DNA of 64,000 nucleotides from NCBI GenBank assembly GCA_049510295.1, contig JBEKZC010000004.1, positions 4,224 to 68,223 on the forward strand, in the 5' to 3' direction. Below the pieces are notes generated by a model. The model had not been told where the DNA came from. It did not search any database and worked only from the letters and a program-made list of their open reading frames with translations. The position numbers and the translations under genes were made by a program. Below, in pieces: positions 28,487-37,964 of this stretch. The stretch comes from Verrucomicrobiota bacterium. GTDB lineage: Bacteria > Verrucomicrobiota > Verrucomicrobiia > Limisphaerales > UBA11358. Positions within the stretch are counted from its first letter, which is position 1. Each line of letters starts with the position of its first letter.

Positions 28487-28523
28487 TGCTCTTTGCACCG
28501 AAGGCAGGTGATTGCTTTCACAA

Positions 28524-28553
28524 AAAGGCAACGAATAGGGGTTCGTTGCCTTT
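28524..28553. terminator. Conserved hairpin of HTH1 unit 1 (bidirectional terminator-like)
   Basis: aaaggcaacgaa/tagggg/ttcgttgccttt. A T-run follows on the minus-strand reading, and the hairpin lies 38 nt after the stop of the 1307-aa gene. Confidence 0.55.
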
Positions 28554-28555
28554 GG

Positions 28556-28852
28556 CTATTTTGGACGTTGTTTCGTCAATGTCGCGAACGGGTCATAACC
28601 CATATACGCGATAATTCGAGCGTGATAGGGAACTGTTGGAAACAGCCGGTCACATTCCCAAAGACTCAGAGACCTTGGGCTAACCCCAAGCATTCGAGCC
28701 GCTTCCGATTGCCGGATTCCCGCGCCAAACCGTTTCTTCTTGAGATGTTGGCCGAGGGTCGTAGGCTCTTTTGCGATTGGAAAACTGCGAGTCCAAACCG
28801 GTGCTACGTCTTTGCGCGGCACGCTCACAAGCCTGTCGCAAAAAGGCAACAT
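28556..28852 (-). CDS. Small XRE-like HTH protein, HTH1 copy 1
   Basis: 98 aa: MLPFCDRLVSVPRKDVAPVWTRSFPIAKEPTTLGQHLKKKRFGAGIRQSEAARMLGVSPRSLSLWECDRLFP.. Confidence 0.65.
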   Translation of the reverse strand: MLPFCDRLVSVPRKDVAPVWTRSFPIAKEPTTLGQHLKKKRFGAGIRQSEAARMLGVSPRSLSLWECDRLFPTVPYHARIIAYMGYDPFATLTKQRPK

Positions 28853-29537: not shown

Positions 29538-31202
29538 TTACATAACAATTCCTTTTTCTTTAAGATCATAAAGGCAAGTAAGAACGTCAGGAAATGCTTC
29601 CTTGGGCTGAATTTGATAACGTCTGGCAAGGAGGGCTGCGATGGAGGCAGGCGTGCGGCTGCCGTTGCAGAGCCCAATAATCTCCCGCGCTGTTCGATTA
29701 ATAACGACACTTTCTCGCTGATTAACTGCCACGTATTTTTCGCCGACCTTTCGTAGCAAGAGGCCACTTGCCTGTTGTGGTCGCAACTTCTCCGCATCTG
29801 CCCAAGGTCCGGAGGCGTCTAGATATTGACACACGAGATTCATAAAACCTTTACGTTCCGCTTCTGATAATACAGCAATTGCCATCTCAATGGTGCATTG
29901 AATATAACGACATTGTTCTGGCACTGGTACTGAAACGCAGCCACTATCCATGTACGCATCGTGGTAACACATGCCACCACAATATTGGCGTGCCCAACAT
30001 GCGGAACAACTCGCATTTTCAGCGCCCATTATTATCTTATCTACAGGCGATGCATCATATCCTGTGAAAACTGTCCCCATATGAAATTTTGGTAGATCAA
30101 AGAAGCGATGACAGAGACAGTACTCACCCGTAGCAGAAACTCCTAAATATGAACATCCAGCGCCGCACACCTGTCTCGAACGCCGTCCATAAAGTGCACG
30201 GCGAAGCCAATTTGCACTCTGAATGTCCCCGGAGTAGCCGGCGGCAACAACATCATCACAGAATGCAGTAAAGAGCGCCTCATAGGAATCCCGCAAGGCG
30301 GGAAGATCGTTTTCTTGGAGATTAAACTCTGGTTTCCCCGCCACAAACGCGGGGACGAGGGCAACTCTGCGAACACCCAGCCCTTGTAAGTAACGATAAA
30401 TCCCCGGCAAATTAAGATTGAGACGGCTAAAAGTGGCACGGATCATTACACGGTCAGTATCAGTTCCCATGATTCGCAACAGCATACTAAGCTTTCTCGA
30501 TGCAACGTCAAATATGCCCTGACCATTCGGGAATAATCTCATGCGATTAGTTGTTTCAGCGTTTCCATCAAGGCTGAACAGTACTGCAATGTGATGTTCA
30601 TGGATGAATTTAGCAATCTCCTCTATCAGCATTGTTCCATTGGTTGTGAGTCCGAATGCAATATGGCATTTCTGCTCCTTAGCCTTTTGTTCGCCATAGA
30701 GAACAAGTTCCCTCATGACTGAATAATTCAGTAGCGGTTCTCCACCGAAGAAAGATACATTGTGCCGAGATGATGGCTCATCAATAAGGCGATCAATTGC
30801 GGCTTTGCCGATTTCGAGGGACATGTCGACAGAAGACGATCCCTCGTGCTGAGCACTGAAGTAACAATATTTGCAGCATAGATTGCATCGCCTGGTAAGT
30901 TCAAGGGAAAGATAATTAACTGGGTTTCGGCAGCTCCCCGCCCTTAAGCTCAATATTTTTGAATTAACCAATCGGCTTGCTGTGTGTTCTAACGGCTCTG
31001 ATGTAATACCCGCGGCCGACACTCCTCGGGTTTCATACAAACTCTTCCATGCTCCGGACGTAAGCAACAGTTCTTCGTCTGGAGTAAGACAAAGAAAAGT
31101 CCTCGTCTTACTGTTAACGGCAAAAGATTTCTGCCCTCTGCGATATATATGAATATCTTGCATCCCAGATAGTAACCCGTCACCCATCCGGCACCCATGC
31201 AA
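29538..31202 (-). CDS. Radical SAM / SPASM maturase with a C-terminal PqqD/RRE-like domain
   Basis: 554 aa with CxxxCxxC (RRCNLCCKYCYF), SPASM Cys clusters (..CSACWARQYCGGMCYHD..) and a C-terminal ..VVINRTAREIIGLCNGSRTPASIAALLARRYQI.. PqqD-like segment. Confidence 0.8.
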   Translation of the reverse strand: MHGCRMGDGLLSGMQDIHIYRRGQKSFAVNSKTRTFLCLTPDEELLLTSGAWKSLYETRGVSAAGITSEPLEHTASRLVNSKILSLRAGSCRNPVNYLSLELTRRCNLCCKYCYFSAQHEGSSSVDMSLEIGKAAIDRLIDEPSSRHNVSFFGGEPLLNYSVMRELVLYGEQKAKEQKCHIAFGLTTNGTMLIEEIAKFIHEHHIAVLFSLDGNAETTNRMRLFPNGQGIFDVASRKLSMLLRIMGTDTDRVMIRATFSRLNLNLPGIYRYLQGLGVRRVALVPAFVAGKPEFNLQENDLPALRDSYEALFTAFCDDVVAAGYSGDIQSANWLRRALYGRRSRQVCGAGCSYLGVSATGEYCLCHRFFDLPKFHMGTVFTGYDASPVDKIIMGAENASCSACWARQYCGGMCYHDAYMDSGCVSVPVPEQCRYIQCTIEMAIAVLSEAERKGFMNLVCQYLDASGPWADAEKLRPQQASGLLLRKVGEKYVAVNQRESVVINRTAREIIGLCNGSRTPASIAALLARRYQIQPKEAFPDVLTCLYDLKEKGIVM

Positions 31203-31240
31203 TAAAATTGAAAAGCTATGGGTTAATTACAATTCATTCA

Positions 31241-31471
31241 TCAGGCAGATTCCCCGTCGCATGGGCGACATTCGAAATGGTCGCCGCAACCGGCACATTC
31301 CAACACTTGCCCGCAGTTTGTGCACGGTCTCTCGCTAGAGGGGCAAATGGTGCATTCACATTCCACATTCACATTAGGAGGTGTGGTTTGTTTGATGCCT
31401 TTCGCTATGCCACCAACATCTGGTTTTTCATAGGTCGGCTTTGATTTATTGCATTTCTTTGAGTTTCTCAT
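31241..31471 (-). CDS. Cys-rich precursor-like peptide (76 aa)
   Basis: Strong SD (ggaggga) 5 nt before the ATG at 31471. MRNSKKCNKSKPTYEKPDVGGIAKGIKQTTPPNVNVECECTICPSSERPCTNCGQVLECAGCGDHFECRPCDGESA. It ends 38 nt upstream of the rSAM start. Confidence 0.65.
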   Translation of the reverse strand: MRNSKKCNKSKPTYEKPDVGGIAKGIKQTTPPNVNVECECTICPSSERPCTNCGQVLECAGCGDHFECRPCDGESA

Positions 31472-31545
31472 CGTCTCCCTCCAAGAGTATTGCCCGGTCC
31501 GCCGCCGGAAATTTGGCTTCGATGTTTTGAATTAATTAAGCGGAT

Positions 31546-31581
31546 ATTTCCCACATATGACCCGACATTTCCCATATGACC
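31546..31581. promoter_or_regulatory. Tandem operator-like repeat upstream of the precursor gene
   Basis: atttcccacatatgacc and atttcccatatgacc lie 4 nt apart, each centred on a catatg palindrome, about 75-110 nt upstream of the precursor ATG (minus strand). Confidence 0.3.
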
Positions 31582-31798
31582 TACGCTCGCCACTGTCGCG
31601 AAGCATTTGGTTTCATTGGCCGTCATTTTATCCTCGCTGCCTGTGTCCGCAAGCTTATTTTCCTATCTCAAGGCCGGATTGTTACCTCCGGGATCGTCGT
31701 TCTTCCTTGCAAACGGGCTCCATCGCGAATTTTGACCAATCATCGGCACAATCCTTCCCTCAGCCCGCACTCCTTCCCCCTATTTCGTTCCGTGGGCA

Positions 31799-32191
31799 TC
31801 AGCCCGGTACCGGTGTGGGCAACCGCAGGTGCCCAATCCGCTCCAGAATCGCTCGGAATAACTCACGCGGAATCGCCACTTCCGCCATCTGGAAGATCAC
31901 CTGCCGGGCATGGCGCACCACCTTCGCGCCGATCTTGATCAGTTTCTCCCGCAACGTCGTCAGCGGCAGCTTGGTGTCCTGAAACACCGTTCCCGCCAGC
32001 ACCGAAGTCTGGTGCCGGCAATCCTGACAAAGCCACAAGCCGCGTTTCATCGGCCAAGTGCGCTGGCTTGCGCAGCGCGGACAACGCAAGCCCTCCGGCC
32101 AGCGAAACGCTTGAATATAGGCCAAACAATCGGTCTCATCGTGAAAACGCTGTTCCAGTTCCATCCATGTTCGCGGGTAGTCTTCGTTCAT
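31799..32191 (-). pseudogene. Chimeric transposase remnant (IS1595-type zinc-ribbon N-terminus fused to an unrelated transposase C-terminal tail)
   Basis: N-terminus ..DCLAYIQAFRWPEGLRCPRCASQRTWPMKRGLWLCQDCRHQTSVLAGTVFQDTKLPL.. is the IS1595 N-terminal domain. The tail ..KLIKIGAKVVRHARQVIFQMAEVAIPRELFRAILERI.. resembles the extreme C-terminus of IS1380/IS4-type DDE transposases. There is no catalytic domain. Confidence 0.6.
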
Positions 32192-32323
32192 ATCCGAAAA
32201 CTCTACCCGTTGTGCCTGGTTGAGTCATGTGCATACCCCTATGAAATGATTAAATATTGAAAGGTTGGGCCTCTTTTTTCGTATCAGACGAATGGAGAAC
32301 GCAGGCGAAGAATCATTGGGGTT

Positions 32324-32539
32324 ATGGCGCGGGCGGCCCAGCTCAATAATCTTCAACAGTGGCTGAAAATAGCTGAGAAATCAACCTACAGCGCCCGTGT
32401 CTTGTCGAAAAAACTGGAAGTCTCCCCACGGCAATTGCGGCGTTATACGCACGCCCGTTTTGGACGCAGACAGCACGAAAAATTCAGCCCTTCTCCCGTG
32501 AGTTGCGCGAGAATGGCTGACTACGAGCGGCGGAAATAG
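32324..32539 (+). pseudogene. AraC-family HTH fragment
   Basis: 71 aa: ..YSARVLSKKLEVSPRQLRRYTHARFG.. is a single AraC-type HTH repeat with no ligand domain. Confidence 0.4.
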
Positions 32540-32561
32540 CCGCCAACGGCGTGTTCATTCA

Positions 32562-32771
32562 CGCGAGAACCACTCCCAAATTATTTAACACGACATCGAT
32601 CGGATTCACCAAAGTGATGCCGGATTGGTTATCCGTGGCGCATACCAACCCCACAGGCTGTAATGTTGCAGCGTCAACGACGAGTGACCCCGAATCGCCT
32701 TTCTGTGCGAACGGCTGACCATTCACACCTTCAATGAGCCCGGTGTTTGGGCCCGGTGTTGACCAAGCAGG
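32562..32771 (-). other. 70-codon stop-to-stop frame encoding a GDSGS serine-protease-like C-terminus; overlaps the S8 stop
   Basis: I translated this by hand: PAWSTPGPNTGLIEGVNGQPFAQKGDSGSLVVDAATLQPVGLVCATDNQSGITLVNPIDVVLNNLGVVLA*. It has no ATG and is offset by one nt from the S8 frame. Confidence 0.3.
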
Positions 32772-37617: not shown

Positions 37618-37964
37618 GCCTTTCACAAAAAGGCAACGACTCGGGGTTCGTTGCCTTTGGCTGTTTTGGGCATTATTTCGCCAGTTTCTCGAACGGGTTA
37701 TAGCCCAGATACGCAACGATTCGAGCGTGATAGGGAGCGGTTGGAAACAGCCTATCGCATTCCCAAAGACTCAGAGACCTTGCGCTAACCCCTAGTATTT
37801 GAGCGGCTTCCGATTGCCGGATTCCCGCGCCAAACCGTTTCTTCTTGAGATGTTGGCCGAGGGTCGTAGGCTCCTTTGCAATTGGAAAACTGCGAGTCCA
37901 AACAGGTGCAACGTCTTTGCGCGGCACGCTCACAAGCCCGTCGCAAAAAGGCAACATCGCGCAC
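37618..37964. repeat. HTH1 unit copy 2
   Basis: Near-identical to copies 1 and 3; includes the hairpin at 37629..37658. Confidence 0.85.
37673..37957 (-). CDS. Small XRE-like HTH protein, HTH1 copy 2
   Basis: 94 aa: MLPFCDGLVSVPRKDVAPVWTRSFPIAKEPTTLGQHLKKKRFGAGIRQSEAAQILGVSARSLSLWECDRLFP.. Confidence 0.65.
   Translation of the reverse strand: MLPFCDGLVSVPRKDVAPVWTRSFPIAKEPTTLGQHLKKKRFGAGIRQSEAAQILGVSARSLSLWECDRLFPTAPYHARIVAYLGYNPFEKLAK

Follow-up and report, generated by a model that had tools for sequence, protein, structure and literature searches.

The 64,000-nucleotide (nt) stretch of the Verrucomicrobiota bacterium contig JBEKZC010000004.1 analysed here (called the window) carries on its minus strand a cysteine-rich open reading frame (ORF) of 76 amino acids (aa), followed by the gene of a 554-aa radical S-adenosylmethionine (SAM)/SPASM enzyme and preceded by a tandem repeat. 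This arrangement is probably what survives of the 3' part of a rare cassette for protein-tail maturation, located on accessory DNA, with an intact enzyme, a truncated carrier protein of which the tail is left, and the end of an insertion sequence (IS) in the place of a supposed operator. The analysis establishes the gene anatomy, the homologies and what the IS end is; the chemistry and the membrane topology are predicted from them. In a preliminary description of the window the two ORFs had been read as a precursor-maturase pair of the kind that makes peptides synthesized by ribosomes and modified after translation (RiPPs). The parts it listed were all recovered in place, i.e. the 76-aa ORF with its GGAGGGA, the 38-nt gap, the 554-aa enzyme, the two copies of the repeat at 31546-31581 (which precede the ATG by 75-110 nt), the IS debris and a 1455-aa S8 subtilase, and the position of a Cys- and acidic-rich ORF directly upstream of a peptide-type maturase was confirmed. 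The main features of the pair, which include domains of the RiPP recognition element (RRE) type, are:

31241-31471, minus strand: 76-aa ORF; residues 13-30 (TYEKPDVGGIAKGIKQTT) are leader-like, and the core (residues 37-76) contains nine Cys and eight Asp/Glu
31476-31482, minus strand: Shine-Dalgarno-like GGAGGGA, ending 4 nt before the ATG and lying within the degraded membrane-helix codons
31472-31523, minus strand: probable frameshifted membrane-helix remnant, in the -1 frame over 48 nt (IEAKFPAADRAILLEG versus IKRTLPFAGGAILLAG in the homologue P0124)
29538-31202, minus strand: 554-aa radical SAM/SPASM ORF with a TTG start and in-frame ATGs at codons 6 and 14
30963-31175, minus strand: RRE-like domain near the N-terminus (residues ~10-80), which shows a beta3-alpha3 pattern in the AlphaFold2 model
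30864-30887, minus strand: radical SAM cluster motif C106-X3-C110-X2-C113, in columns that are nearly invariant in a 91-sequence alignment
29910-30167, minus strand: SPASM region with seven Cys (C346, C364, C399, C402, C408, C412 and C431), invariant in the 91-sequence alignment (A5)
29544-29735, minus strand: C-terminal PqqD/RRE domain, residues 490-553 (PF05402, E 8.1e-10, 39.3 bits versus a cutoff of 23.4)

The 76-aa ORF appears to be the retained, predicted cytoplasmic tail of a membrane-anchored long form, and its reading as an independent precursor family, which had been proposed, is not supported. A word-based search of 5.8 billion proteins with the peptide returned only the peptide itself, and phmmer against 1.84 billion representatives found a sole true homologue, residues 244-307 of the 313-aa protein P0124 (69% identity, E 1.5e-18; 44/66 identities in tblastn). 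No short-form homologue occurred in either collection. P0124 has a signal peptide and a membrane helix, with the homologous tail at its C-terminus. The window and P0124 agree in each of the nine core Cys and each of the eight Asp/Glu while 22 other positions are changed, and the stretch before the core, TYEKPDVGGIxKxIKQT, is identical at 15 of 17 positions. The C-X3-[DE] spacings C43-E47 and C68-D72 are kept in P0124, and the C-X4-[DE] spacings are conserved as well. Within the 76-aa ORF, YEKPDVGGIAKGIKQT is taken as the candidate leader for the RRE domains.

P0124 belongs to a family of 313-376-aa proteins comprising P0126-P0130 and a second paralogue on L023. No member matched a Pfam family, and the only NCBIfam match among those scanned was a weak one to a tail. 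Common to the members are a start that resembles a signal peptide and a conserved region marked by the motifs FNDPAH, WGK and LFDG, followed by a low-complexity linker, one hydrophobic helix (LPLAxGAxLLAGA) and basic residues. The C-terminal tails are wholly different between members and are of CxC/CxxC-rich, CxxxC-repeat and Cys-poor types. The AlphaFold2 model of P0124 was poor (51.9 in pLDDT, the predicted form of the local distance difference test), and confidence was confined to residues 40-120, modelled as a helical domain. The positive-inside rule would place the tail in the cytoplasm, within reach of an iron-sulfur enzyme. Radical SAM maturases lie beside family members in two of the four readable contexts. 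P0130 adjoins a TIGR04463-like radical SAM enzyme (TIGR04463 being its best match), and P0128 with its tandem paralogue (both with Cys-poor tails) is followed by a YydG-like radical SAM/SPASM enzyme, a 308-aa protein of unknown type and an Rce1-like protease; this cluster (L023:82-5331) may be a complete carrier-tail system with a different chemistry. On two other contigs with family members no radical SAM gene lies beside the long form within the stretch available. The combination of conserved carrier, variable tail and differing maturases nearby suggests the leader/core logic of RiPPs transferred to a membrane-anchored protein. A search of 401 genomes of the window's phylum for the long-form family gave no match, an empty result that, without a positive control, is not informative.

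Some further observations were made on these contigs. P0126 (L021:334-2016) adjoins a gene for a coupling protein of the TrwB/DUF87 type, which hints at a mobile element. P0129 and the 55%-identical homologue of the window enzyme were considered as possible neighbours and rejected: they come from the same sample, are not adjacent, and their contigs differ in base composition by eye. The gene after P0129 is short-chain dehydrogenase-like, with a Gly-rich motif VLVVGATSGLG recognized by eye.

Several observations strongly suggest that the long-form gene of the window has been truncated. The 76-aa ORF holds the tail only, and the ~240 first residues of the long form are missing from it; its Met aligns with the internal Met236 of P0124. 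The N-terminal part of the long form is found nowhere in the genome, tblastn with the family returning only the 76-aa ORF. Directly upstream of the ATG, the putative helix remnant is collinear with P0124 and keeps the same register up to Met236. Its local alignment score of 30 was reached by 78 of 2000 protein shuffles and 39 of 2000 DNA shuffles, and the remnant, which lies exactly where one would be expected, can be graded as weak to moderate. No further N-terminal remnant scored above shuffles at 31441-32760.

The region upstream of the remnant consists of IS debris:

31546-31581, minus strand: tandem repeat, two copies of the core of an IS1380-family right terminal inverted repeat (CATATGGGAAAT and CATATGTGGGAAAT)
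31540-31965, minus strand: 3' stump of an IS1380-family element, comprising the final ~60 codons of the transposase, a 3' untranslated part that has diverged, and the terminal repeats
31966-32191, minus strand: IS1595-type zinc-ribbon fragment (PF12760, E 1.4e-13), fused in frame with the IS1380 stump

The IS1380 identity of the stump rests on its transposase part, of which 133 nt (31833-31965) are 84-87% identical to a multicopy element of congeneric genomes. The genome called G017 has 11 matches, nine of them at 87% over the same 133 nt, and copies occur in four other congeners. Comparison of five copies within G017 defined the ends of a 1678-nt element (L025:219-1897), the transposase of which matches NF033539 with 388.8 bits (cutoff 180). 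This reference element ends on the right with ...AAACCATATGGGAAATCCCAGAT, and ATTTCCCAAAT lies inverted at its left end. Copy A of the window repeat (CATATGGGAAAT, 31567-31578) matches the right-end core of the G017 element at 12 of 12 positions in the same orientation, and in copy B a TG is inserted into this core. From copy A to the end of transposase homology there are 255 nt in the window versus 245 nt in the reference element. Given the 12/12 match, the orientation and the spacing, the repeat is the terminal inverted repeat of the IS stump, present twice; it is an IS1380-type right terminal repeat, which replaces the operator of the preliminary description. The right end lies ~16 nt further upstream than the helix remnant. 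The window genome holds only the stump, and the element is inactive. The stump forms part of a chimeric 130-aa ORF (31799-32191) that joins an IS1595-type zinc-ribbon N-terminus to the last ~60 residues of an IS1380-type transposase and matches DDE_Tnp_1_4.

Taken by itself, the tandem repeat is suggestive and modestly above chance: in simulated 329-nt spacers with the same neighbouring-base frequencies, its ungapped score was reached 57 times in 1000. A promoter scan found no sigma-70-type promoter on the minus strand upstream of the 76-aa ORF. IS1380-family ends such as that of ISEcp1 can drive adjacent genes, and by analogy an outward promoter inside the IS end is possible.

The 554-aa ORF is an intact CteB-like radical SAM/SPASM protein with one N-terminal RRE-like and one C-terminal PqqD domain, for which leader binding is predicted. 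The radical SAM model PF04055 scored 56.4 bits (cutoff 29.5), and Fer4_12 was matched as well. The Pfam SPASM hidden Markov model gave no match at E <= 0.01; the seven-Cys motif is present and the region aligns with the SPASM domain of CteB. In the AlphaFold2 model, built from 91 sequences (mean pLDDT 86.3; predicted template-modelling score, pTM, 0.80), the N-terminal domain comprises the strands E17-22, E25-30 and E35-39 and the helices H41-49, H51-59 and H69-80, and a second beta3-alpha3 domain at residues 482-549 corresponds to the PqqD match. The enzyme thus has PF05402 above its cutoff together with beta3-alpha3 domains at residues 17-80 and 482-549. The N-terminal domain is also kept in the 55%-identical homologue on L001. 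It had been proposed that the RRE is C-terminal here and N-terminal in a paralogue elsewhere in the window; the C-terminal PqqD domain is real, and the enzyme has an N-terminal RRE-like domain too. The closest solved structure is CteB both by sequence (E 9e-53) and by fold (TM-score 0.82 normalised to the target, with a Foldseek alignment that covers CteB at full length); the fold also matches anSME. All invariant and nearly invariant family columns carry the consensus residue in the window enzyme, and its terminal branch (0.13 versus 0.18 for the sister P0002) indicates no acceleration. As a side observation, the JGI gene calls on identical contigs (L011-L018) begin the enzyme at Met127 (428 aa), a start that drops the CX3CX2C motif and the N-terminal RRE, and leave the 76-aa ORF uncalled.

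The comparison with named families supports a predicted peptide-type radical SAM/SPASM maturase. The top NCBIfam matches, all far under their cutoffs, are QhpD (TIGR03906, 231.1 bits versus 453), PapB (NF047865, 217.1 versus 340), a nif11-type maturase (209.5) and the SCIFF maturase (TIGR03974, 208.9 versus 425), so that the enzyme falls outside the QhpD, PapB and SCIFF models. On the substrate side, only two C-X3-[DE] spacings are present in the core, and the 76-aa peptide has no NCBIfam match, TIGR03973 included. An assignment as an anaerobic sulfatase maturase, which the preliminary description had named as a possible objection, was rejected (TIGR03942, 77.2 bits versus 349.45; two RRE-type domains present). 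Only two close clusters exist among the 5.8 billion proteins, P0002 at 75% and P0003 at 55% identity. The next matches (P0004-P0006, 31-34% identity) are PqqD-fused and have no N-terminal RRE. In the tree a long branch (2.15) leads to the window clade. This clade groups with none of the named SCIFF, QhpX and PapB rows, nor is it the sister of the second PqqD-fused group (P0004-P0006). The enzyme represents an orphan lineage, to which the thioether formers CteB/SCIFF, QhpD and PapB come closest. Its alignment with the paralogue in the window gave 26% identity over 208 residues, confined to the radical SAM core. The earlier idea that the same chemical theme occurs twice was drawn from composition only, and the peptides of the two cassettes have no detectable homology.

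On the P0002 contig a same-strand ORF upstream of the enzyme is open over at least 115 codons, which fits a long form there too, and a further gene follows 5 nt after the enzyme; nothing comparable follows the window enzyme. The P0002 enzyme gene itself is divided into calls of 166 aa and 349 aa. In L001 (1-300) the reading frame changes at a run of CTCTCT immediately ahead of the cluster motif.

The pair lies between two direct repeats of a module:

28515-28814, plus strand: left ~300-nt direct repeat at the module edge, which carries an XRE-type helix-turn-helix gene (28556-28852, minus strand)
37620-37919, plus strand: right ~300-nt direct repeat at the module edge, 90% identical to the left one

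The enzyme starts 38 nt 3' of the stop of the 76-aa ORF on the same strand, and upstream of the pair on this strand follow the chimeric IS fragment and the 1455-aa S8 subtilase. The enzyme had no match at E <= 1e-20 among 24 genomes of the same genus and 16 of the same order; the gene is thus accessory, in agreement with the earlier placement of the pair on mobile or accessory DNA. The same locus is present on nine JGI contigs, 100% identical over 3 kb, and a scan of metagenome contigs found one more from the same population (1 mismatch in 1377 nt). A scan of public genome contigs yielded no close relatives of the enzyme. The pair's module within the window contains no protease or exporter. 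The S8 subtilase, earlier suggested as leader peptidase, is a secreted giant with a signal sequence; since IS debris splits it from the pair and no S8 protease lies beside the relatives examined, this role is unsupported. Relatives of the subtilase amounted to one partial 42% match, the context of which was uninformative. Further upstream, 200 nt (32279-32478) share 82% identity with a site on contig C91 of this genome; they overlap a 71-aa ORF (32324-32539, plus strand) that by eye resembles a fragment of a helix-turn-helix regulator.

The following course of events and mode of action would account for the locus. The full-size partner would have run from a signal peptide through a helical domain of ~80 residues and a long disordered linker to a single membrane helix and, after it, a cytoplasmic tail that begins with the recognition stretch (YEKPDVGGIxKxIKQT) and ends with the nine-Cys, Asp/Glu-rich core. 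An IS1380-family element would have inserted ~17 codons upstream of the tail; all sequence 5' of the insertion point would then have been lost and the IS itself would have decayed to debris, so that a 76-aa ORF is left, which has a Shine-Dalgarno sequence and begins at an ATG that corresponds to an internal Met of the long form. The enzyme has one radical SAM [4Fe-4S] site and, in its SPASM domain, seven Cys for two auxiliary clusters; the recognition stretch would be bound by one or both RRE domains. The enzyme would abstract a hydrogen from an Asp or Glu side-chain carbon and join this carbon to a Cys sulfur, giving ranthionine-type thioethers at the C-X3-[DE] and C-X4-[DE] spacings. This Cys-to-Asp/Glu chemistry is predicted from the distant family resemblance to QhpD and PapB. 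The chances that the stump is still expressed and modified appear about even: the intact enzyme without branch acceleration, the conserved Cys and acidic residues and the good ribosome-binding site speak for activity, and the loss of the carrier, the missing counterpart of the partner downstream of P0002, the lack of a protease or exporter and the interrupted enzymes of the relatives speak against it. In a wider proposal, which we put forward tentatively and consider unlikely on balance, the long forms would be an undescribed class of radical SAM targets, i.e. Sec-targeted membrane carriers that expose highly variable RiPP-like cores at the cytoplasmic side, where the maturase encoded next to each would cross-link them, and the window tail with its dual-RRE enzyme would be a self-sufficient unit that has outlived its carrier and is re-expressed from the IS end.

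Several points weigh against the reading of the locus as the remainder of a tail-maturation cassette. The 400-aa gene after P0124 is absent from the homologue list of the window enzyme and may not be an orthologue of it, and the adjacency of a long form to an orthologue of the window enzyme is presumed rather than proven. The scores for named maturases are so far under the cutoffs that the chemistry is extrapolated, and the CxxC pairs of the tail could equally bind metal. The membrane-helix remnant is statistically weak alone (p ~0.02-0.04). In the enzyme lineage, two members out of three (L001 and P0002) seem to be interrupted, and with all metagenome copies identical or one base apart there is no population signal of selection. 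One alternative is that the cassette is a dead relic in which stump ORF and enzyme are neither expressed nor acting. The truncated gene with IS debris on one side, the interrupted sister enzymes, the lack of a window counterpart to the gene 5 nt after the P0002 enzyme and the absence of a sigma-70-like promoter upstream on the minus strand all fit a relic; yet the enzyme keeps every conserved residue on an unaccelerated branch, the tail has 0 changes at 17 Cys/Asp/Glu positions versus 22 elsewhere, and IS1380-family ends can, as for ISEcp1, drive their neighbours. We regard a dead relic as possible, if somewhat doubtful.

The remaining alternatives concern the peptide and the repeat. That the 76-aa ORF is the original free-standing RiPP precursor, the pair being complete and the 313-aa form a secondary fusion, would agree with the strong Shine-Dalgarno sequence and ATG, with the conservation of the leader-like stretch and of all Cys and acidic residues relative to P0124, and with the intact enzyme on its short branch. 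It is made distinctly improbable by the helix and N-terminal domain common to all seven members of the family, which, as the tails are unrelated, are parts of the ancestral gene, and also by the helix-like remnant upstream in another frame, the IS end at the junction, the module without protease or exporter and the lack of any short-form homologue. If the Cys-rich tail were instead a metal-binding, zinc-knuckle-like module and the enzyme acted elsewhere, its three CxxC pairs (two of them CxxCG, classic metal ligand motifs) and the two contigs with no radical SAM gene beside the long form would be explained; but the ORF lies 38 nt from an enzyme with two RRE domains, its acidic residues are conserved along with the Cys, and the tails of other members adjoin other maturases, and we consider such a module very improbable. 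Least credible is an operator for a local regulator of a peptide-enzyme operon. The two copies, 21 nt apart and each with a CATATG, do stand 75-110 nt before the ATG, and no more than 1 of 200 simulated spacers attained the gapped repeat score. Against a regulatory site, which is scarcely tenable, stand the agreement with the IS1380 right end of the congeners, in orientation and transposase spacing as expected, and the absence of the motif anywhere else in the genome.

Radical SAM thioether maturases are known mostly from short peptides, and cases with full proteins (QhpC and CrpA) are few. If the tail-maturation reading holds, a family of carriers that combine a signal peptide, a membrane helix and interchangeable tails, and that have varied maturases as neighbours, would widen this picture, and the locus offers new cores and a dual-RRE enzyme as objects of study. 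For annotation, what looks like a "precursor peptide" beside a maturase may prove to be a gene stump, and a tidy tandem repeat before an operon an IS terminus; the enzyme itself is mis-started in public calls.

Among known systems, the SynChlorMet-like cassettes (P0004-P0006) provide the only other matches with a C-terminal PqqD domain fused to a SPASM enzyme. They differ from the window pair in having no N-terminal RRE, in their neighbours (ScmC-like and NTP_transf_5 genes on L002, L008, L009 and L010), in their position in the tree, where they are not sister to the window clade, and in their precursors, which are free of Cys and end in ...VESVxLSxEAAEALT (more broadly, ...P(R/S/K)(V/I)E(S/A)V(Q/E)LS(Q/K/R)EAAE(A/S)LT). 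PapB of the freyrasin system (NF047865) is the second-best NCBIfam match and shares the C-X3-D/E spacings, whereas the window core is not a regular CX3D repeat and the domain architecture differs. The resemblance to QhpD (TIGR03906), which forms Cys-to-Asp/Glu thioethers in QhpC, the small subunit of quinohemoprotein amine dehydrogenase, lies in the top NCBIfam match, in a protein as substrate and in conserved pairs of Cys and Asp/Glu that fit the QhpD chemistry; unlike that system, the module has no qhp or amine dehydrogenase genes, and the tail has no homology to QhpC (no family match).

The SCIFF system (CteB/Tte1186, TIGR03974, PDB 5WGG/5WHY; precursor TIGR03973) shares with the window pair the order of N-terminal RRE, radical SAM and seven-Cys SPASM domains and a very Cys-rich substrate, and CteB is the best solved match by sequence and fold. 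In contrast to it, the window enzyme lies on a long separate branch and has an extra C-terminal PqqD domain, and the window peptide matches no SCIFF model and derives from a 313-aa membrane protein. In Methanococcus voltae, CrpC (TIGR04463) installs ranthionine links on the Cys-rich C-terminal part of full-size CrpA (PMC13692751). CrpA is soluble and has a leader-like N-terminus of 47 residues and regular repeats, whereas the long-form carrier has a signal peptide, a membrane helix and variable tails, and the window enzyme is not of the TIGR04463 type. Common to both systems is an RRE-bearing radical SAM/SPASM enzyme that acts, or in the window is predicted to act, on the Cys-rich C-terminus of a protein, and the neighbour of the long form P0130 finds its best match in TIGR04463 itself.

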